From a virus: a stretch of 59,401 nt of DNA. Positions 458-59,401 of the stretch are shown here, piece by piece. Every line of letters starts with the position of its first letter. Within the stretch, counting starts at the first letter, position 1. The stretch is from the IMG/VR virus record IMGVR_UViG_3300002038_000009, positions 1 to 59,401 of that record; one strand, 5' to 3'. Under the pieces are notes generated by a model. The model was given only the letters and a program-made list of their open reading frames with translations, did not search any database and was not told where the DNA came from. Both the position numbers and the translations under genes were made by a program.

Positions 458-675
458 TATTCTTCTCCGGTTGTATCTTGGTGCGCCTCTAACAAATCGT
501 TCAAGGAACATGTGGTTTGTCCTGAGGGCTTGTAATGTGTAACGGCGTTTATCCATTCGCCATTCTGTCGAACATAAGTTTCAGGTTCCGGGGTTACTCC
601 CAGTTGTCCTCGTTCGCGCCTTACTGTCAACACAACATCACAACAGGGCGTGTAATGTACTCTTAATAATTTCAT
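457..675 (-). CDS. hypothetical protein (72 aa)
   Basis: ORF track. Start and stop overlap both neighbours in a packed leftward operon. Confidence 0.65.
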   Translation of the reverse strand: MKLLRVHYTPCCDVVLTVRRERGQLGVTPEPETYVRQNGEWINAVTHYKPSGQTTCSLNDLLEAHQDTTGEE

Positions 676-1061
676 CAGTCTGTTTCTCCAAATAGGTCCA
701 CAAGGTCTTGGACTTCTTCATCACTGACTTGTGTATCCACGTATTCATCACTGTAGTATTTTTCCATATCCTCGGCAGCTCGTCTACGGCGTGTGAAATC
801 AGCTCGCTTAGCAGCAGCTTCAACCTTAGTTATTAGTTTTACAGGCGACCCCTCTTTAGAGGCGGCCATAGAACTCGATAACTTCATTCGCTGTAAATGC
901 TCGGAGGTCTTGTTTCGGGTTCCCTTGATGTGGGTGATTGCCTCACATGTATTGAACCGCTCCCCACACTCCTTACACTCTCTACGGCGTAAGATAACCT
1001 CACCTTGATGACCTGTATCGACAACACGAAGCTTAGTTGATTTGCAATTAGGACACTGCAT
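675..1061 (-). CDS. NrdR-like zinc-ribbon protein without an ATP-cone (128 aa)
   Basis: MQCPNCKSTKLRVVDTGHQGEVILRRRECKECGERFNTCE aligns by eye with the NrdR N-terminal CxxC...RRRxCxxCxxRFxTxE zinc ribbon. The C-terminal 80 aa is acidic/basic and not ATP-cone-like. Confidence 0.65.
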   Translation of the reverse strand: MQCPNCKSTKLRVVDTGHQGEVILRRRECKECGERFNTCEAITHIKGTRNKTSEHLQRMKLSSSMAASKEGSPVKLITKVEAAAKRADFTRRRRAAEDMEKYYSDEYVDTQVSDEEVQDLVDLFGETD

Positions 1062-2384: not shown

Positions 2385-2898
2385 CTAAACTTACGGTTGT
2401 TTCAACACTAACACTAATGTGGGGGACAGGCTTGGCGCGAGGACGTGCCCGGTTATGTACGTCTGCCCAGTGATTTCGAATATCAACTAAGGTTCGTGCG
2501 GGTTTATCAGATTTGCCGAATGCCCGTCGATCAGAGAACATGTATCCCCCGTGACGGTTCCCCCAGATTTCTTTATTAGCATGGGCCCAAGCCTCTAGAT
2601 AATCAGGGTCTATAACCCCAAGGTCGTTAGCCATAAGGTAGGCCCCCGCCTTGTAGTCTAGCATACCTGCGTAATTACGGGCTTGGTCTAGCAGATGCTT
2701 ATCTAAGCCTGCTTGGTAACGGGCGAAGAGGTACCAACCGCCATGGCACATGGGGGACCCGCAGTAAGTTTGTAAGCGACCTACGTTCCCTTCGTACATA
2801 TCTAGGGACCCTTCTTCTCGTGCCTCTGGTATATTAAGTAGTACATAATCTAAGGTGCTGATTACTTTCTTAAATTGTTTACTGTTAGGTGTTTTCAT
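2374..2898 (-). CDS. hypothetical protein, tandem paralog A (CGSPMCHGGWY motif)
   Basis: Shares N-terminus MKTPNSKQFKKVI, the CGSPMCHGGWY motif and C-terminal VD(I/V)RNHWADVHNRARPRA with the next gene. Confidence 0.75.
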   Translation of the reverse strand: MKTPNSKQFKKVISTLDYVLLNIPEAREEGSLDMYEGNVGRLQTYCGSPMCHGGWYLFARYQAGLDKHLLDQARNYAGMLDYKAGAYLMANDLGVIDPDYLEAWAHANKEIWGNRHGGYMFSDRRAFGKSDKPARTLVDIRNHWADVHNRARPRAKPVPHISVSVETTVSLVEV

Positions 2899-3404
2899 GC
2901 TTCCACCAATTGTGTGGTCACCTTTACGTGAGGAATCGGAGTGGCTCTAGGACGTGCCCGGTTATGGACATCTGCCCAATGGTTGCGGACATCAACCAAG
3001 GTCATCGTATCTGCTTCGCCAAAAGCAAGGTTACTGCAAAACATACGACCACCATGAAAGTTACCCCAGATAGTCATATTTGAGTAGGCCCATGCAGTTA
3101 AATGGTCTTCTGTCTCAAACCCTAGATCATTGGCCATTATGTGGGCTCCCGCCTCGTAATCCATATGACCACATGCCGCCTTTAATGCATCAGTTTTTAA
3201 ATCTTTTGGCAAGCCTGTTTGGGTTCGAGCAACCACGTACCATCCACCATGACACATAGGGGAACCACAAAAGTTTTTGGGGTTTTTTACCTCAGGTTCT
3301 CCCATATCAAAATACTGTTCTTCTCGCGCGGCCGATATTGTTTTCAAGATGTGGTCGAAAGCGGCGATGACTTTCTTAAATTGTTTACTGTTAGGTGTTT
3401 TCAT
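2895..3404 (-). CDS. hypothetical protein, tandem paralog B (169 aa from ATG 3404; the ORF track extends to a TTG at 3461)
   Basis: The ATG at 3404 gives the same MKTPNSKQFKKVI start as paralog A. A 35-bp identical start region is present at 2864-2898 and 3370-3404. AGAGG RBS. Confidence 0.75.
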   Translation of the reverse strand: MKTPNSKQFKKVIAAFDHILKTISAAREEQYFDMGEPEVKNPKNFCGSPMCHGGWYVVARTQTGLPKDLKTDALKAACGHMDYEAGAHIMANDLGFETEDHLTAWAYSNMTIWGNFHGGRMFCSNLAFGEADTMTLVDVRNHWADVHNRARPRATPIPHVKVTTQLVEA

Positions 3405-3432
3405 TTTAGTGCCTCTGATTTTGTAAAATGAT

Positions 3433-3461
3433 AATTTACCACGGCCTATGAAAGAGTGCAA
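3433..3461 (-). promoter_or_regulatory. candidate leftward early promoter (TTGCAC-N17-TAAATT)
   Basis: On the minus strand the -35 TTGCAC is at 3461-3456 and the -10 TAAATT at 3438-3433, with a 17-nt spacer. It sits about 30 nt upstream of the first leftward gene. Confidence 0.5.
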
Positions 3462-3623
3462 CTTTTATTTTATAATGGCCTCTGTTAGACAGATGTACAG
3501 TACACTTTACAAATGTCTAATAGGTGATTTTAGATTGTATGATTTATAATATAATTAAACTATAGTTAATGTAATAATAGATAAACTGTCTAATACAGTA
3601 CGAGAGTACGTTTTCTCGGAACA

Positions 3624-3652
3624 AAAGTGTACTGTAAAACGTACTGTCTTTT
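3624..3652. repeat. left arm of a 29-bp perfect inverted repeat (AAAGTGTACTGTAAAACGTACTGTCTTTT)
   Basis: The reverse complement is present at 3850-3878. It contains two GTACTGT half-sites. Confidence 0.9.
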
Positions 3653-3849
3653 TGCCTTTAAAATCAAGTGTTTAGTGAAAACAGTATGCTAAGTATACTA
3701 TTTCTTCTATTTAAAGAGTTTATAAAATATATAATATATATACCCTATAGAATCTCAGAAAAATAAAAATAAAAACTTTTTTGGGCGTTTTTAGCATACT
3801 CTCGTACTTTCGGCCATTTTGAAAACGTAAGTCCTTGAAATCGTTGAAC

Positions 3850-3878
3850 AAAAGACAGTACGTTTTACAGTACACTTT
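3850..3878. repeat. right arm of the 29-bp inverted repeat
   Basis: AAAAGACAGTACGTTTTACAGTACACTTT is the reverse complement of 3624-3652. Confidence 0.9.
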
Positions 3879-3900
3879 CTAAAATGAAAACGTACTGTCC

Positions 3901-3929
3901 TTGTACTCTAGGGGCGGGTGTAGTAAAAT
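3901..3929 (+). promoter_or_regulatory. candidate rightward early promoter (TTGTAC-N17-TAAAAT)
   Basis: -35 at 3901-3906 and -10 at 3924-3929. It lies immediately downstream of an ACAGTAC-type repeat (3886-3900) and 32 nt upstream of ATG 3961. Confidence 0.45.
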
Positions 3930-3960
3930 AAGAACCTTGTTAATATAACGGTCCCCATAT

Positions 3961-4695
3961 ATGAGTAACGAAGATAAACACACACTTTTCCCTTGGGAGA
4001 CACAGGGTACACTTTTTGGCCCCGCTGATTTAGGTATTGGAAGATCACCTGAACCAAACCCAGATACATCTAATCAAGTAGGGGATATCAATTCAGATGA
4101 GGTTGGTAGTGGTGCGCGCTACAACGGGGGTAAACCCGATTTTTCTTTGTTGATTATAAAGGACCTGCCTGTTGTTGCCGCTTCCTCGGGTCTTCTAGTG
4201 TCTGCAATAAAAAACCTCGGGGAGTTTCAAATAAGTGGTGATGCTGATTATTTGGATAAGGCTTTAAAGGACACTTACGTATATGCACATACCCAGTTAG
4301 AAACAGAATATGTTTTCGAACCAGTGGTTCGGGTTTGGGAATTTGGCCAGAGGAAGTACGCTCGATGGAATTGGACTAAGGGCATGGCTTGGAGTGTGCC
4401 GATCGCATGTGCGGTACGTCATTGGCTGGCTATCGTGGAGAAGAAGGAGCCCATCGATGAGGACTCGGGTTATCCCCATTGGGCGCACATCGTGTGCAAC
4501 TTGCAAATGCTCAAGCAATACACCCGATCGTATCTTGAAGGAAATGACTTACCATACTTGACTTATCAAAAAGATGACCGCTTCACGATATCGGGTACCC
4601 TAACAGAATTTGATGTGACCGCTTGGCAACACGGGGCCGAACAGATAAACGGTACTTTACAATTCCAAACTCAAAATTCAATAAACCAAAATTAG
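3961..4695 (+). CDS. all-alpha (MazG-like) NTP pyrophosphohydrolase-like protein, resembling the dATP/dGTP diphosphohydrolase N-terminal (DUF5664-type) family
   Basis: Motifs recognised by eye: ARYNGGKPDFSLL, WEFGQRKYARWNWTKG, AVRHW, DEDSGYPHWAHIVCNLQML. Confidence 0.55.
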   Translation: MSNEDKHTLFPWETQGTLFGPADLGIGRSPEPNPDTSNQVGDINSDEVGSGARYNGGKPDFSLLIIKDLPVVAASSGLLVSAIKNLGEFQISGDADYLDKALKDTYVYAHTQLETEYVFEPVVRVWEFGQRKYARWNWTKGMAWSVPIACAVRHWLAIVEKKEPIDEDSGYPHWAHIVCNLQMLKQYTRSYLEGNDLPYLTYQKDDRFTISGTLTEFDVTAWQHGAEQINGTLQFQTQNSINQN

Positions 4696-4974: not shown

Positions 4975-5397
4975 ATGCTAATAAAATCTCGGGATCGAAG
5001 GAAGGGTATCTCCGAATTATTAGATCAGTGGGCAGACTGGGTGTTTCATCAAGATAAGGGTGAACTTCGGGCATTAGGTATTAAATCGTGGTTGGGTGAA
5101 TTAGTTCGTAACAACAACACAGACATAAACACCTACCATGAACCGATGCCTGTTATAGACTTAAGTCACCACGATGCTAGGATGACCATTATAGATGGTG
5201 CAGTTAAATCATTACCCCGTTTGCAAAGAGAGACAATTTTAATTGAGTACATCGTTAGGCGCCGTGATCGCAAAGAGATTAGGGAGAACTGGCTGCAGGT
5301 ACACAATAGGACCTACAATGCTCATCGTAAGATGATTTCATCGGTTAAAGATATATTGTGGATAATAATTGAGAAACCACTTGACAACCTAGTATAA
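4975..5397 (+). CDS. candidate Q-type transcription antiterminator (140 aa)
   Basis: LLDQWADWV... and ...ARMTIIDGAVKSLPRLQRETILIEY resemble the small lambdoid Q (QuuQ-like) family pattern LERWGAWA / DDDAMxIxxxMxxL. Its 3' end overlaps a promoter that is followed by a terminator. Confidence 0.45.
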   Translation: MLIKSRDRRKGISELLDQWADWVFHQDKGELRALGIKSWLGELVRNNNTDINTYHEPMPVIDLSHHDARMTIIDGAVKSLPRLQRETILIEYIVRRRDRKEIRENWLQVHNRTYNAHRKMISSVKDILWIIIEKPLDNLV

Positions 5398-5467: not shown

Positions 5468-5504
5468 AATCCCCTTCCGCCTTGTTCGGTTGGGGATTTT
5501 TTTT
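5468..5504 (+). terminator. Rho-independent terminator
   Basis: Stem AATCCCC (5468-5474) / GGGGATT (5492-5498), followed by a T8 run. Confidence 0.8.
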
Positions 5505-5508
5505 CGCC

Positions 5509-5591
5509 AAAGTGCAACTTTCATATGGATTAGTGAAGTGCAACTTGTATCTGTGGGAATCAAAGTGCAACTTGTATATCTGTGGGAATAA
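5509..5591 (+). repeat. three copies of AAGTGCAACTT, the last two inside a 27/29-bp tandem unit (AAGTGCAACTTGTAT(AT)CTGTGGGAAT)
   Basis: Motif at 5511-5520, 5537-5546 and 5564-5573. Tandem units at 5536-5562 and 5563-5591. Confidence 0.9.
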
Positions 5592-5670: not shown

Positions 5671-5699
5671 TTGACAACAGGCCAAAGTAAAAGGATAAT
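5671..5699 (+). promoter_or_regulatory. sigma70 promoter (TTGACA-N17-GATAAT)
   Basis: Part of a duplicated promoter-leader cassette CTTGACAAC..AAAGTAAA..ATAATTTACTCAT...CAAGGTAT also found at 6168. Confidence 0.7.
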
Positions 5700-5732
5700 T
5701 TACTCATTCAACGAAACAAGGTATTTAATAAA

Positions 5733-6162
<430 letters not shown>

Positions 6163-6167
6163 AAGAC

Positions 6168-6196
6168 TTGACAACAAACTAAAGTAAACTTATAAT
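6168..6196 (+). promoter_or_regulatory. consensus sigma70 promoter (TTGACA-N17-TATAAT)
   Basis: -35 at 6168-6173 and -10 at 6191-6196. Confidence 0.8.
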
Positions 6197-6230
6197 TTAC
6201 TCATATTAATTAAACACAAGGTATATAAAA

Positions 6231-9372: not shown

Positions 9373-9445
9373 TTTAAAGAATTTGATCTGCGCACGCTAA
9401 CAAAGCCCGTCATTCCAGTGAACACGTTTCACCTTTGACGCGTCC

Positions 9446-9482
9446 AAACCCCGTTTCTATTGGCGTAGAGCGGGGTTTTTAT
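9446..9482 (+). terminator. Rho-independent terminator
   Basis: AAACCCCG (9446-9453) / CGGGGTTT (9471-9478), followed by a T run. Confidence 0.8.
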
Positions 9483-9725
9483 TTAAAATTCATGCAAAGT
9501 GGAGTTGTTATTTCTTAAGGTTGTAGATAGTTAATATCCAATATCCGGATAATGGATAATTAAATCAAAAAGATAGAGCTATATCGTGTAGATATTCCGT
9601 ATTCGAATGTGGAATAGCGGCGTTGACTAATTCAAGTTGTTCGTAAAACTTGAAAATACGCCAACGTAAGTGAGATTTGCAAGCTTACTGATGAGTATAC
9701 AAACTCGCTGCAAATGTATACCTAT

Positions 9726-9749
9726 AAGTTGCTTTTGAAGTTGCTTTTG
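9726..9749 (+). repeat. perfect tandem 12-mer AAGTTGCTTTTG x2
   Basis: Direct reading. The second copy supplies TTGCTT, which with an 18-nt spacer faces TATAAG at 9765-9770. Confidence 0.85.
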
Positions 9750-9850
9750 GTTTAAAAAGAAGCATATAAGGGTACCCACACTACCAAAATATCGACATGT
9801 TTAAACTATGTGTCGGTTGCATAAACATATCTATGCAAAAAGGATCTCCC

Positions 9851-47662: not shown

Positions 47663-49789
47663 TTAGAATTCTGGATCTACATGCTTAAGGTAAGTATCTA
47701 GTAGATCGCGATCGGTCATAGAACGATAAATCGGATCGTTGGACAGTACACACAAACTGTACCGTTTGGTAGGCTTACCGGGTTGATTCTTATTAATCGC
47801 AAACCGACGGTGGCCATAGTGGTCTAGCACGGTGTTGATCATGCGATTAGAAACGCCACTAATATTTTGCGTTTCTGACATATATTGACGGATAACGGAA
47901 ATCTCACAGATCGGATGGTTGGCCCCAATGTGTTGTAAGGCTTCTTGAGTTTCTTCTGCCCTATCCGGTGCTGTAGTGGTCTCCTGAATAGCAGCCTTAA
48001 ACTTAGCTTGGCGGTCAGATTGAATAGGCGCCTTATTAGGAGTGAACGTTTGAGTGTCGTAGTCCAACAAGTAAGCCATGACTGCTTCCATACCACCGTT
48101 GTAGTATAACCAATCGTGGTAACCGTTTATCCAATCGGCGGTGGCATCACTAACTGTTACACCTGAGTTCTTTATAGCGGTAGCCGAAACAATAACGTAA
48201 TAGCGTCTGTCTGAGGGCTCTATCTCAATAGGCACTAGGTGATTTGACAGGCCTATGAAACGCGTCACATTATCTATCTGGTATTCATTAATATACTTAC
48301 GCTTAACCGTAACCTTATCATTAGTCACCTTTTCTTTAAGGGCGTTGGCCAGTGCCTTGGTCTGCGTACTGTGTGATATCCTCATCTCTTCAATGGCCAC
48401 TACCAATTTGTTTTCCAACAAGGCTGTCCAGTTACCTAGCATATCGGCGGCTGCGATAGCAGAATAGTTGTGCATACCCACCAACCGACCCATGATGTCA
48501 CACAACGTACTCTTGCCCGAACCCTGCCCTCCGATCAGGATGGGCATCCAACGAACCTTTTCCTCCGGGCGTTTGACCGCATGGGACATGAAGCCAAGTA
48601 GGGTAGCAATCGACTCGGGCTCACCGTCGCATAAACTAGCGACATGTCTAAGGAAGGGTGTAACATCCCCCTCTTTTGGTTGAATAGTTGTTGGTCGCCA
48701 GTTGTTCCAGTACTTCTCAACCCCGTGCGCTACGATCAGTTCCTTGTTAGGGAAGTAACCGAACCCTCGTACGTTATTACAGGCTAGCATATGCCCTTTA
48801 ATATCTTTCTGAGAAGCGGTGCGCCCAAAGATAAGTGGAATCTGGTTGGCCTTAAGGTGGGTGCCATCGGTAGTGAACACGTCAGCATCTATCACATAGG
48901 TTAGGTAGGGCATACGTTGTTCTATAGGTAGCGCATCGATCTCCTCTATCTCATAATCCTCTAGGCGAGTAATTTGATCAGAGTACCAGCGCTTAAGTGC
49001 AGCGAAAGCATCATCGGGTAAATGTTGTCGTAGGGTCTGCTCCCCTGCTACACGTCCGCCGTTCTCGAGTTTGCGAATAGTTGCCTTGACTTGAGCACTA
49101 CGATCTTCCACATCACCAGTGATCTCACCGATAGCGGTAACGACATCGAGTATGGTTTCTTCATCGTACTGGTTCTTGGCCAAAAATCCAGCGAGACCGA
49201 GTGACAGGTTATGTCTACTGCCGTCGCTCCAATAAGGCGTGATGAAGTCACAAGTAGCCACAAGTCGAACTTGCCTAAACAGCCAGTCTCCTGATTGGAT
49301 AGTTGCCGGTGAATCTCCGATAAGCTCGATTTTTGCCCCGGAAGGATGCAAGCTCGGAGCAACCATAGTGTACTGTGAGTTATTAGACCCATCCGTTCCC
49401 CGCATCTCACAAGACATCTTGTTAGACGGGAGGGTAAACTGTTTTGTATGTATAGGATCATGACCACTCGGTATGTTATAAAGATAGTGAGTCACCACAC
49501 CATCTTTTTTAAGCATTAAAGTTTTAGGTAATAGCTTAGGGGCATAGCGCCTTGCGTTAGGTGAGTCCAGATCTATATCGACACACGTCTTACCCAATAG
49601 TAGACCAATATTACTAGCACCACCGCTCTTATTGAAGCGCTCGAGTTCGGTAGCCTCCTTCCAAGGGGTGGTCTTCCAGTCTTTATTGGCTGGTATCTTA
49701 CCGCCGGGTCTTCCGGCTATGGGGTGCCACCCTAGCTCGATATAATATTCCGCCGCTTCAGAGGGAGACGAAAACTCTTTAACCAGCAC
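47663..49789 (-). CDS. bifunctional primase-polymerase (AEP) / SF3 (D5/P4-type) helicase
   Basis: N-terminus YYIELGWHPIAGRPGGKIPANKDW and CVDIDLD (AEP). Walker A ILIGGQGSGKST and Walker B VVAIEEM. GTG start. Confidence 0.85.
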   Translation of the reverse strand: MLVKEFSSPSEAAEYYIELGWHPIAGRPGGKIPANKDWKTTPWKEATELERFNKSGGASNIGLLLGKTCVDIDLDSPNARRYAPKLLPKTLMLKKDGVVTHYLYNIPSGHDPIHTKQFTLPSNKMSCEMRGTDGSNNSQYTMVAPSLHPSGAKIELIGDSPATIQSGDWLFRQVRLVATCDFITPYWSDGSRHNLSLGLAGFLAKNQYDEETILDVVTAIGEITGDVEDRSAQVKATIRKLENGGRVAGEQTLRQHLPDDAFAALKRWYSDQITRLEDYEIEEIDALPIEQRMPYLTYVIDADVFTTDGTHLKANQIPLIFGRTASQKDIKGHMLACNNVRGFGYFPNKELIVAHGVEKYWNNWRPTTIQPKEGDVTPFLRHVASLCDGEPESIATLLGFMSHAVKRPEEKVRWMPILIGGQGSGKSTLCDIMGRLVGMHNYSAIAAADMLGNWTALLENKLVVAIEEMRISHSTQTKALANALKEKVTNDKVTVKRKYINEYQIDNVTRFIGLSNHLVPIEIEPSDRRYYVIVSATAIKNSGVTVSDATADWINGYHDWLYYNGGMEAVMAYLLDYDTQTFTPNKAPIQSDRQAKFKAAIQETTTAPDRAEETQEALQHIGANHPICEISVIRQYMSETQNISGVSNRMINTVLDHYGHRRFAINKNQPGKPTKRYSLCVLSNDPIYRSMTDRDLLDTYLKHVDPEF

Positions 49790-56699: not shown

Positions 56700-56819
56700 G
56701 CGGAATACTCCTTAGTTAAAGGGTTTAGGTATTGATCGGCTTTTGCTCATGACCACTACAATTTTACAAAAACTAAAAAATAACAGTGGAAAATCCTAGC
56801 GTGCTTTTGTTCATCTCTG

Positions 56820-57062
56820 CTATGACACATCATCGTCACCGTAACCGCTACCGTCATCGTCATCGTCATCGTAACCGCTACCGCTACCGCTACCGCTACT
56901 GCCACCGTAACCGCCACCGTAACCGCCACCGTAACCGTAACCGTAACAGTAACCGCCACCGCCACCGTAACCGCCACCGCCACCGCCACCGTAACCGCCA
57001 CCGTAACCGCCACCGTAACCGTCACCGATCAAATCATTAAAACTAACTATTTTGGGTTCCAC
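56820..57062 (-). CDS. Gly/Tyr-rich low-complexity protein with a poly-Asp tail (80 aa, GTG start)
   Basis: (M)EPKIVSFNDLIGDGYGGGYGGGYGGGGGGGYGGGGGYCYGYGYGGGYGGGYGGSSGSGSGSGYDDDDDDGSGYGDDDVS. This frame is contiguous with the upstream gene. All three frames are open across the repeat. Confidence 0.5.
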   Translation of the reverse strand: MEPKIVSFNDLIGDGYGGGYGGGYGGGGGGGYGGGGGYCYGYGYGGGYGGGYGGSSGSGSGSGYDDDDDDGSGYGDDDVS

Positions 57063-58293: not shown

Positions 58294-58875
58294 TTAACTC
58301 TCCAATTCCGCTAATCTTTTCATGTCTTCCATAGCCTCGTCATTAAAGCAATGAAAGTCCGGTACTTTTCTTAAATCTGGATCACTGACTAGATATATCA
58401 AGGTTGCTGCTAGCGACGTGCCAAGGGAAGCTTCAAGTTTCGATCCACCCTCGCCAGCTAAGGTTGTTACCCACCCTGCTCGACAATGGGTTGTTTCACA
58501 TGAATGCCACTCATGCATGTTTAATGCGCCCTCCCTAGAAGCTGCCTCATAGACTTCTTTATGTATGTTTTCTATGACAGGTACGTCACTCAGGGCGGCA
58601 AGGCTCAGAATGGTGCCCCTCAGAATGGTGCCTCTCAGGGCGGCAAGGCTCAGGTCGGCACCACTCAGATTGGCATGGCTCAGGTCGGCACCACTCAGGT
58701 CGGCACCACTCAGGTCGGCACCACTCAGATTGGCATGGCTCAGGTCGGCTCCGTTTTTAACCGCCCACTTCACAGCCAAACCAACTTTCTCTGATCTTTC
58801 CGCATTTTCATCACAGTATATATCGGCGGTAACTTGAACGTCGCCGCTAAACCTATTTAGAATATCGAATTTCAT
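58294..58875 (-). CDS. pentapeptide-repeat protein (193 aa)
   Basis: ADLSHANLSGADLSGADLSGADLSHANLSGADLSLAALRGTILRGTILS, encoded by near-perfect 15-nt DNA repeats. The C-terminal domain contains HEWHSCETTHCRAGW. Confidence 0.85.
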   Translation of the reverse strand: MKFDILNRFSGDVQVTADIYCDENAERSEKVGLAVKWAVKNGADLSHANLSGADLSGADLSGADLSHANLSGADLSLAALRGTILRGTILSLAALSDVPVIENIHKEVYEAASREGALNMHEWHSCETTHCRAGWVTTLAGEGGSKLEASLGTSLAATLIYLVSDPDLRKVPDFHCFNDEAMEDMKRLAELES

Positions 58876-59089: not shown

Positions 59090-59401
59090 TTAAGCCATGA
59101 CCTCATCTAGTTCACGCAGTCTTATTGCCTGTTTTTCGCTTAAGCGAGTCTGCTTTCCGTCATTCCCGATTTCCAGTAGTTGGTCTAGTGTTTCTAGCAC
59201 TTGGTCCCATATTTGTTGCGATACAGTAACACCAGCAACACTAGTAACACGGGCAGCACGGGCAGCAGCCGCAACAGCATCAGAATCAGAATCAGAATCA
59301 GAATCAGAATCAGAATCAGCATAAGCATCAGCAGTCGCCGCCGCGTGGGCCGCGTGAGCCGCCGCGTGAGCCGCCAAGCGAGCCGCCGCGTGAGCCACGT
59401 G
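59090..59401 (-). CDS. 3' part of the wrap-around gene (see 1-457)
   Basis: The frame is open to the window end. The GTG 'start' in the ORF track is internal (…HVAHAAARLAAH…). Contains ADSDSDSDSDSDSDA. Confidence 0.75.
   Translation of the reverse strand, partial: HVAHAAARLAAHAAAHAAHAAATADAYADSDSDSDSDSDSDAVAAAARAARVTSVAGVTVSQQIWDQVLETLDQLLEIGNDGKQTRLSEKQAIRLRELDEVMA
59279..59320. repeat. hexanucleotide microsatellite (ATCAGA) x6 plus one imperfect unit
   Basis: Direct reading. It encodes (Asp-Ser)n on the minus strand. Confidence 0.95.

Follow-up and report, generated by a model that had tools for sequence, protein, structure and literature searches.

A mirror-ordered, conserved repeat module between the divergent gene arms of a siphovirus-like phage: a candidate bidirectional replication origin

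The DNA analyzed in this study, hereafter the window, is the whole 59,401-nucleotide stretch of IMG/VR virus record IMGVR_UViG_3300002038_000009. This 59.4-kb window is a siphovirus-like phage genome with two divergent gene arms. The plus-strand arm (3961 to ~40250) carries small early genes, followed by genes for the small and large terminase subunits (TerS/TerL), portal, capsid, tape measure and tail. The minus-strand arm (~40400 round to 3404) encodes a family-A DNA polymerase, an SNF2-type helicase, a PrimPol-DUF5906/VapE primase-helicase and tRNA-His, together with many small genes. Both arms diverge from a non-coding region at 3405-3960, and the subject of this report is a module of short AGTAC-type units and two sites resembling the consensus for integration host factor (IHF), disposed in mirror order around the AT-rich core of that region. 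Because the positions and orientations of the units are conserved in lineages whose flanking proteins have diverged widely, we conclude that the region is functional. A tentative interpretation, to which we give slightly less than an even chance, is that the segment at ~3595-3909 is a bidirectional replication origin of the type in which iterons lie on either side of an AT-rich melting site. This reading is preferred because two opposed sets of short repeats surround the most meltable DNA of the genome.

Layout and conservation of the module

According to the open reading frame (ORF) map, the non-coding region fills exactly the 556 bp between the divergent arms (3405-3960), as an earlier note on this DNA had described. 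It is delimited by the start codons of the left flanking gene (ATG at 3404, minus strand; 169 aa, matching database protein P0106) and of the right flanking gene (ATG at 3961, plus strand). The perfect 29-bp inverted repeat to which the same note had drawn attention is present, with arms at 3624-3652 and 3850-3878 that are 100% complementary, and every other local inverted repeat of the window is shorter. The ACAGTAC half-sites are likewise borne out: 18 copies exist in the window (8.5 ± 3.2 expected), and seven of them fall in 3497-3898, an 87-fold local density. The arrangement AGTAC-N7-AGTAC is found in the two 29-bp arms only. A second inverted pair is real as well, although it is perfect over 12 nt (3597-3608/3797-3808) and not over the 16 nt claimed initially.

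Megablast against GenBank phages did not detect any close relative of the window. Identity to deposited phages reaches at most 39% for TerL and at most 42% for the DNA polymerase, and the latter value places the phage in a family without a cultured or annotated member. Relatives were recovered via the flanking and downstream genes, and three further lineages with the divergent layout were obtained, which makes four lineages in all. The first is represented by the Logan contig L024, with a homologue of a 244-aa protein encoded near the module that is 63% identical. In the second (L025/L026/L029) identity of the 244-aa homologue is 52%. In the third, the L033 group (L031-L034, L041 and L052), identities are 48% for the 244-aa protein and 40% for a neighboring 140-aa protein; the group can be considered a true relative because its TerL, portal and capsid are 77%, 68% and 56% identical to those of the window. 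Contig L023 is the window phage again, from another run. Searches of IMG/VR were less productive. An exact search for the arm core ACAGTACGTTTTACAGTAC gave no match, a search with the first leftward gene gave no relative, and a search with the 244-aa gene yielded domain-level relatives only, none of them with the module. A scan of IMG/VR for paired IHF-like sites found only two more copies from the L033 lineage, the other 16 matches being unrelated coding sequence.

All AGTA[CT] units were mapped against the midpoint between the two conserved IHF-like sites, and a plan common to the four lineages was found. On the left side, plus-oriented units are found at -152 and -144, minus-oriented units at -120 and -108, and plus-oriented units at -65 and -56. 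On the right side, minus-oriented units are found at +47 and +55, plus-oriented units at +108 and +120, and minus-oriented units at ~+142 and +152. The order of elements is therefore +,+,-,-,[IHF-like],+,+ on the left and -,-,[IHF-like],+,+,-,- on the right, a mirror layout of ~12 AGTAC-type units. Furthermore, the right outer cluster and the reverse-complemented left outer cluster share the same plan: two direct units, an 8-nt spacer and an inverted unit.

In the window, the outer-left cluster (3595-3647; offsets -152, -144, -120 and -108) is made of ACAGTACGAGAG (3595-3606, +), AGAGTACGTTTT (3603-3614, +), ACAGTACACTTT (3624-3635, -) and ACAGTACGTTTT (3636-3647, -); L024, L032 and L033 reproduce these offsets and orientations, and L025 does so partly. 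The inner-left units ACAGTATGCTAA and TAAGTATACTAT (3681-3701, plus strand; offsets -66 and -57) are directed toward the core; in L024 and L025 they occupy -65/-56, and L033 keeps the one at -56. The inner-right units AGAGTATGCTAA and AAAGTACGAGAG (3791-3810, minus strand; offsets +47 and +55) are also directed toward the core, and their GTACT-T-GG columns are invariant in the four lineages. The outer-right cluster (3855-3909) comprises ACAGTACGTTTT (3855-3866, +), ACAGTACACTTT (3867-3878, +), a second ACAGTACGTTTT (3887-3898, -) and AGAGTACAAGGA (3898-3909, -), at offsets +108, +120, +143 and +154. Not every lineage has the full set: L024 is devoid of the +120 unit, two outer units per side are missing from L025, and one inner unit per side from L033.

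The left IHF-like site, AATCAAGTGTTTA (3662-3674, plus strand), is a perfect match to WATCAANNNNTTR, the IHF consensus as given in PMC10380432. The window contains just one other perfect match, and the equivalent place is occupied in all lineages. The right site, TTTCAAGGACTTA (3828-3840, minus strand), has one mismatch in the window and is perfect in L024, L025 and L033. The spacing between the left and right sites is 166 bp in the window and 164 bp in each of the relatives, despite indels in the core, and both sites are preceded by A/T-rich DNA (TTTAAA or TTTATA). The number of matches to WATCAANNNNTTR is not significant (two perfect matches in the window versus 3.1 expected); the argument for these sites is drawn instead from the conservation of their position, orientation and spacing. 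Conservation extends to the NNNN positions of the sites (GGGC/GGAC), and a protein other than IHF may therefore use them.

The AT-rich core (3702-3790, 80% A+T) is a candidate DNA-unwinding element. It takes in the AT-rich stretch pointed out in the earlier note and corresponds to the least stable 100-bp duplex of the 59.4-kb window (dG -102, compared with a mean of -135 and a standard deviation of 7.2). In all four lineages the core has 67-80% A+T and ranks among the 0.2-2% least stable windows. No DnaA boxes were detected in the region. To the left of the core module lies a second AT-rich stretch (3525-3585), whose stability is the second or third lowest of any window in the genome and which is partly kept in L024 and L025. 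Just outside the outermost left unit, a TGTCnAnT element is found (3587-3594, plus strand), whose columns TGTC-A-TA are invariant in the four lineages. Further out, a distal left element (3482-3523) forms an imperfect hairpin or inverted repeat that holds an extra unit, ACAGTACACTTT (3497-3508, +); the element is also present in L024 at the same offset (-248 versus -250).

Conservation was measured by anchoring each half of the module on its IHF-like site and comparing lineages without gaps, in register and in shifted registers. Ungapped identity was 0.40-0.65 in register, compared with 0.26-0.30 in shifted registers (z = 3.5-9.6), and this was so for all six lineage pairs. Across the four lineages, 40 of 158 columns are invariant in the left half and 35 of 171 in the right half, while 4.5 and 4.1 were expected (maximum 11). 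The invariant columns coincide with the pair of outer-left units, the two IHF-like sites, the inner-right unit and the unit at +108. Gapped global identity was discarded as a measure of conservation: shuffled controls reach ~0.60, so that a value of 0.66 for L025/L033 means little. The internal offsets of the units are fixed to 1-2 bp across the four lineages, while the flanking proteins are only 38-65% identical between lineages and the third codon positions of adjacent genes only 31-45%. The earlier note had staked its reading on conservation of the repeats in relatives, and they are indeed kept in position and orientation. The perfect 29-bp inverted repeat, on which the note's idea of looping over ~230 bp was built, is in contrast found in the window phage only: L024 has lost one of its four units, and elsewhere the arms differ between sides. 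Hence, emphasis shifts from the perfect repeat to the conserved geometry of the units and the bend sites. The two IHF-consensus-like sites, the mirror layout of the units and the common plan of the outer clusters are all features beyond those of the earlier note.

A weight matrix built from the units gave matches elsewhere in the genome at chance level and unclustered, and the module is single-copy. Four unit-like matches inside the primase gene were attributed to chance, and three of them are not conserved in the 90%-identical primase of contig L027. The spacing and sequence of the units also rule out, on inspection, that they are LexA boxes, Pho boxes or a sigma54 promoter; a DnaA box reading is discarded on the same grounds and by the absence of such boxes from the region. 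An attP or partition site was rejected as no integrase or ParA/ParB was found among the ORFs scanned, which are a subset of all.

Replication origin and alternative readings

Two putative sigma70-like promoters face outward at the edges of the region, where the earlier note had placed them. P_L (3433-3461, minus strand) combines a -35 TTGCAC (3461-3456), a 17-nt spacer and a -10 TAAATT (3438-3433), and P_R (3901-3929, plus strand) a -35 TTGTAC (3901-3906), a 17-nt spacer and a -10 TAAAAT (3924-3929). Both were read directly from the sequence, and a simple consensus scanner listed neither. Both are conserved in L024 (P_L, TTGCGT-17-TAAAGT; P_R, TTGCGT-17-TAAAAT), and plausible counterparts are found in L025 and L033. 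In the window phage only, the P_L -35 region lies within one copy of AGTGCAACTT, a repeat described below.

The distance between the module and these promoters is variable. The -35 of P_R is at ~+150 in both the window and L024, and is overlapped by the last unit of the window and abutted by the next one, in agreement with the half-site noticed there previously. In L033 and L025, the P_R -35 is found at ~+242 to +253, with ~95 bp that include a third IHF-like site interposed. The P_L -35 is at ~-290, -305, -205 and -390 in the four lineages, without unit overlap in any of them. Overlap or abutment of a promoter by units, as expected of operators, is seen for P_R in the window and L024, and is not seen for P_R in L025 and L033 nor for P_L anywhere. 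Because module-to-promoter distances vary by ~100-240 bp between lineages while the internal geometry stays rigid, the module can be viewed as a self-contained cassette. The earlier note had left the choice between an operator array and a bidirectional origin, or both. Conservation upholds the importance of the region, but simple occlusion of promoters by multiple operators is disfavored: promoter distances vary, P_L is untouched, and units occur elsewhere at chance level only, all of which argues for an origin or some other self-contained machine.

If the module is an origin, the following mechanism can be proposed. A phage initiator would bind the AGTAC-type units, which are oppositely oriented on the two sides of the core. 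The top candidate is the PrimPol plus DUF5906/VapE-like helicase, of the superfamily 3 (SF3)/D5 type, encoded at 47663-49789 (minus strand, 708 aa), which might contact the units through an unrecognized DNA-binding region; alternatively, a small early protein may be the initiator. The 47663-49789 product matches Pfam PF09250, PF19263 and PF05272 as well as the PDB 'Primase' entries 6k9c/6k9e (E = 6e-18), and is the only candidate replicative helicase of the phage. In favor of the module, no rival origin-like structure lies beside the gene for this protein: the DNA downstream of it contains a tRNA and a small ORF, without repeats. Host IHF, or another protein that prefers such sites, would bend the DNA at two sites ~83 bp from the center, and each outer four-unit cluster would fold back to the inner units and the border of the AT-rich core. 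On geometric grounds, a bend at +/-83 would indeed align the outer clusters (108-152) with the inner units and the core edge. The strained core would then melt, and two helicase assemblies might load facing apart. Transcription from P_L and P_R may aid opening, and occupancy of the outermost right unit, which overlaps the P_R -35 in the window phage, may feed back on early transcription.

Several observations weigh against an origin. The cumulative GC skew has its minimum inside 3405-3960, but this minimum coincides with the switch in gene orientation and is hence not independent evidence. Only four lineages were found. Base-by-base dyad symmetry is modest (0.36-0.45 versus 0.26-0.29; z = 1.9-3.7), and the symmetry of the module resides in the order and orientation of its elements, not in the bases. 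The C-terminal 149 aa of the primase-helicase have no Pfam or PDB match, and neither a winged helix nor another DNA-binding domain was recognized there. If the genome is circular, the primase-helicase gene lies ~13 kb from the module by way of the window ends, whereas SaPI/PICI origins (see below) adjoin their rep gene. In two lineages, the window and L024, the P_R -35 is in contact with the outermost right units, an arrangement that fits regulation too. Above all, a conserved direct-repeat array of AGTGCAACTT (5509-5575) resembles classical iterons and constitutes a rival origin site. Our confidence in an origin at the module is not higher chiefly because this array could serve as an origin, as a terminase site or in transcription control.

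The existence of conserved outward promoters on both sides of the array admits a second explanation, namely that the module is a regulatory nucleoprotein complex. A phage early protein would bind the units cooperatively, IHF would bend the DNA, and the looped complex would switch both early promoters, either by repression or by activation (for instance, in early shut-off). The fixed internal geometry and the IHF-like sites fit a complex that depends on architecture, and contacts with P_R recur beyond the overlapping and abutting units of the window: in L024 2-3 bp separate the end of a unit from the -35, and L033 has an extra unit 22 bp 5' of its P_R -35. P_L, however, is not overlapped: 36 bp separate its -35 from the closest unit in the window, and ~240 bp from the module in L033. 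P_R, in turn, lies ~90-100 bp past the last module unit in L025 and L033. No units are found at any other promoter, and the presence of the least stable DNA of the genome at the center is left unexplained. A candidate regulator is also missing: Pfam and PHROG scans did not detect any helix-turn-helix (HTH), ribbon-helix-helix or repressor-like gene among the adjacent conserved genes, in line with the statement in the earlier note that no recognizable CI/Cro-type repressor gene is adjacent. The conserved 244-, 88- and 140-aa neighbors and the 169/174-aa paralogues gave no DNA-binding match in Pfam or PHROG, which is weak evidence in the case of small novel proteins, and structure models were uninformative, with a predicted confidence score (pLDDT) of 46 for the 140-aa protein and of 68 for the 88-aa protein (a helix plus a beta-hairpin). 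Altogether, we regard a regulatory complex as possible and on balance unlikely, bearing in mind that it is compatible with an origin.

A more specific version of the origin hypothesis can also be envisaged: a mirror-symmetric origin with two IHF-type bends and back-to-back loading of the PrimPol-SF3 protein, in which the same complex would gate both early promoters. This proposal is doubtful, a shade more so than the regulatory complex. If true, the double-bend origin would unite, in a bacterial virus, bend-and-capture in the style of oriC with a counterpart of the double-hexamer origins known from eukaryotic DNA viruses.

A much less probable reading is that the module is a packaging (cos) site, with a nicking site in the core and with the units and IHF-like sites as binding sites for the terminase small subunit. 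TerL is of the lambda GpA/Chi type, and the 11.3 kb that separate the region from terS would be acceptable, since the terminase genes of phage Chi lie >10 kb from the left cos end (PMC4342425). The Chi cos junction has an IHF-consensus site at +60 and clusters of repeats, and the low-coverage contig L026 begins 10 bp from the center of the L025 module; eight independent contigs, on the other hand, read through the module. The core does not contain a GC-rich or partly symmetric candidate for the nicking site, and a two-sided mirror layout is unfit for unidirectional packaging. Moreover, TerS is 78% identical between the window and L033, yet the flanks of the units differ (GTACGTTTT versus GTACAAAAC). 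The invariant AGTGCAACTT array, or a non-coding gap at 9373-9797 with a 10/12 match to Chi cos, are at least equal candidates for such a role. We also rejected the idea, borrowed from Chi-like records, that the divergence point is the genome end, as Chi-like genomes are organized differently.

Lastly, it is hardly credible that the region is conserved because it encodes a structured non-coding RNA or a small protein: the inverted repeats give a long predicted hairpin and a 51-aa ORF (3720-3875, minus strand), the only one of any size, has a 53-aa ORF called at the same place in L024, but the RNAalifold covariation term (+0.6 kcal/mol) gives no support and many pairs are broken, no Rfam family scores above noise, the 3720-3875 ORF has a frameshifting indel between the window and L024 with mismatches (10/13/17 by codon position) that show no third-position bias, and the L033 module is devoid of any ATG-initiated ORF of more than 5 aa.

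Neighboring genes and additional control elements

The AGTGCAACTT 10-mer occurs in eight exact copies in the window, all on the plus strand, while ~0.1 are expected. Three tandem copies (5509-5575) are found directly 3' of a terminator-like hairpin (5470-5500) that follows the conserved 140-aa gene, and single copies are at 1697, 3455, 41893, 50470 and 54189. L024, L025, L033 and L032 carry 3-4 tandem copies of the identical 10-mer at the corresponding position, although their 140-aa protein is only 40-65% identical. The array could consist of iterons or of terminase-binding sites, or could be an activator or antiterminator array. Scans of IMG/VR and of GTDB genomes for AGTGCAACTT pairs returned chance matches almost exclusively, and no new lineage. 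The 140-aa protein itself (4975-5397) is encoded beside the module in all lineages, and its gene invariably precedes a terminator and a long non-coding gap of 335-825 bp. Its sequence pattern may resemble that of Q82/QuuD-type antiterminators or of a sigma region-4-like HTH, although Pfam and PDB searches lent no support even at E <= 10.

Downstream of the array, two near-identical, strong sigma70-like promoters, TTGACAAC-N17-TAATTTACTCAT, are found at 5671-5703 and 6168-6200, each before a rightward gene; they are probably middle-gene promoters. At 7312-7339/7355-7382, an exact 28-nt duplication of GCCCACACACGTGGGCTTTTTAATGCCT gives rise to two tandem terminator-like hairpins. The non-coding gap at 9373-9797 (425 bp) contains a terminator, the palindromes TATCCAATATCCGGATAATGGATA (9535-9558) and TATTCCGTATTCGAATGTGGAATA (9593-9616) and a tandem AAGTTGCTTTTG pair, and positions 9385-9396 are those that match the cohesive-end sequence of phage Chi at 10 of 12 nucleotides; the gap is a candidate cos or late-control region. 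Elements of restricted distribution are also detected. L025 has a perfect 12-bp palindrome, GGACATATGTCC (L025 3833-3844), just 5' of its P_R -35, and an extra repeat family, TTTGGTGAATG/CATTCATTTGGTGAAT, is found in ~4 copies 3' of the AGTGCAACTT array in L025 (5640-5790) and L033 (4610-4720). These are lineage-specific extra control elements.

On the rightward side of the divergent region, the motif AACGGTC(A/C)C is located 8-14 nt 5' of the start codon of the first gene, where a Shine-Dalgarno sequence would be expected, and is kept in three lineages (window 3945-3952; L024 ~2820; L025 ~3906). The motif may act as a translational operator or as a ribosome-binding site of an unusual type. 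On the leftward side, the first two genes, at 2374-2898 and 2895-3404 on the minus strand, form a tandem pair of paralogues that share 58% identity. Their family matches no Pfam domain; among 5.8 billion proteins just two further homologues were detected, and members also occur in L027 and in the L033 lineage. Further along the same arm, the 128-aa product of 675-1061 (minus strand) has an NrdR-like N-terminal zinc ribbon (PF22811, E = 5e-13) without a recognized ATP-cone, and is 62% identical to an L027 protein. A possible interpretation is that it is a DNA-binding early protein. The primase-helicase gene of the window (47663-49789) and that of L027 (8532-10655) are 90% identical in protein and 77% in DNA, whereas neighboring genes are 34-66% identical, a mosaicism that suggests recent exchange of the replication gene.

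The start regions of several small leftward genes are near-exact duplicates: 55356-55409/55613-55666 (54 nt, 98%), 57453-57495/57841-57883 (43 nt, 84%) and 55598-55622/55960-55984 (25 nt, 88%). This suggests either recent local gene duplication or common translation-initiation cassettes. In-frame tandem coding repeats are found at 5866-5930, 56819-57046, 58589-58767, 59263-59396 and 6-62, and are of several types: (CCAGAG)n, which encodes Pro-Glu repeats; an array with a 12-nt period; and an array with a 15-nt period in a pentapeptide-repeat protein (PF00805). The two window ends (59263-59396 and 6-62) have short tandem coding repeats of 12 nt in common, by which the apparent terminal overlap of the window is explained; their presence at both ends is compatible with a circular assembly and is no proof of circularity.

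Comparison with known systems

The closest known match is provided by the replication origins of Staphylococcus pathogenicity islands (SaPI) and Gram-negative phage-inducible chromosomal islands (PICI). SaPI origins contain 6-12 iterons, half on each side of an AT-rich center and in opposed directions; they are bound by a self-loading helicase, in some cases fused to a primase, for which loading of one hexamer per side has been proposed (PMC9371898). In PICI origins, opposed sets of iterons also lie around an AT-rich region (PMC6092414). The iterons of these origins are penta- to heptanucleotides. The module of the window has the same two traits, two opposed sets of short iterons (~6 units on each side) and an AT-rich center between them. 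Differences are, however, found. SaPI and PICI origins are immediately downstream of the rep gene, while the primase-helicase gene of the window is ~13 kb off, and the window helicase has no detectable sequence similarity to the SaPI Rep chains in PDB. SaPI and PICI origins are devoid of IHF-like sites, of which the window module has two. In addition, the module is larger (~310 bp, ~12 units) and lies between the divergent early promoters of a 59-kb tailed phage.

The module is also reminiscent of the left half of Escherichia coli oriC (DnaA boxes, IHF site and unwinding element), where an IHF bend next to the unwinding element brings bound initiator to the melted DNA and spacing is critical (PMC10380432). 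In both, a bend site lies between an array for initiator binding and an AT-rich unwinding element. Unlike oriC, the module is devoid of DnaA boxes, its arrangement is doubled in mirror image, and its initiator would be phage-encoded.

Certain likeness to animal virus origins is also found, as the window helicase has a domain of the SF3/D5-type family; no homology is implied. In the core origins of polyomaviruses and papillomaviruses, inverted pairs of penta- or hexanucleotides lie by AT-rich DNA, and two SF3 hexamers assemble head-to-head. These origins are only ~64 bp long, do not need a bending protein, and are recognized by an initiator with a defined origin-binding domain.

Operator regions offer a different parallel. 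In phage Mu, an IHF site lies between operators O1 and O2 (O1-IHF-O2-O3, between divergent Pe and Pc), and in phage 186 flanking CI sites are found ~300 bp on either side of pR. As in the window, repeated sites are combined with bending or wrapping between divergent promoters, and distant sites cooperate. The operators of Mu and 186, however, overlap their promoters and have the repressor gene adjacent, neither of which holds across the window lineages, and their regions have no extreme AT-rich core such as that of the window module.

The packaging sites of lambda and phage Chi share with the module inverted binding repeats that flank an IHF site, and the window terminase is in the same broad family. 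In lambda cosB (R3-I1-R2-R1), inverted R sites flank the IHF bend. CosB is one-sided and adjoins the nicking site, whereas the layout in the window is two-sided, with no nicking-site candidate visible. Phage Chi (KM458633, L232), which represents the nearest characterized phage group, has an IHF-consensus site 60 bp from cos and also a non-coding cluster between cos and gene 1 (226-482) in which seven GTTACAA copies in both orientations surround an AT-rich stretch. We know of no established function for this cluster. It differs from the window module in motif, position and layout, and the resemblance is an analogy only.

To our knowledge, the replication origin is not known in most tailed phages that have PrimPol/D5-type primase-helicases. 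If the module is an origin, it would provide a compact, precisely mapped and evolutionarily footprinted substrate of ~310 bp (~12 units, two bend sites and one melting core), on which the placement of a self-loading SF3-type helicase in bacteria, and the double, mirror-image recruitment of a host bending protein, could be studied. Should it prove to be a control complex, the two early promoters would be governed by an uncommonly elaborate switch with locked geometry, in a phage that has no recognizable repressor. Under either reading, the comparative map pinpoints the bases to mutate. The module is not new in kind: it is a new, elaborate and well-footprinted version of either the iteron/AT-rich/iteron design or the IHF-assisted operator array.

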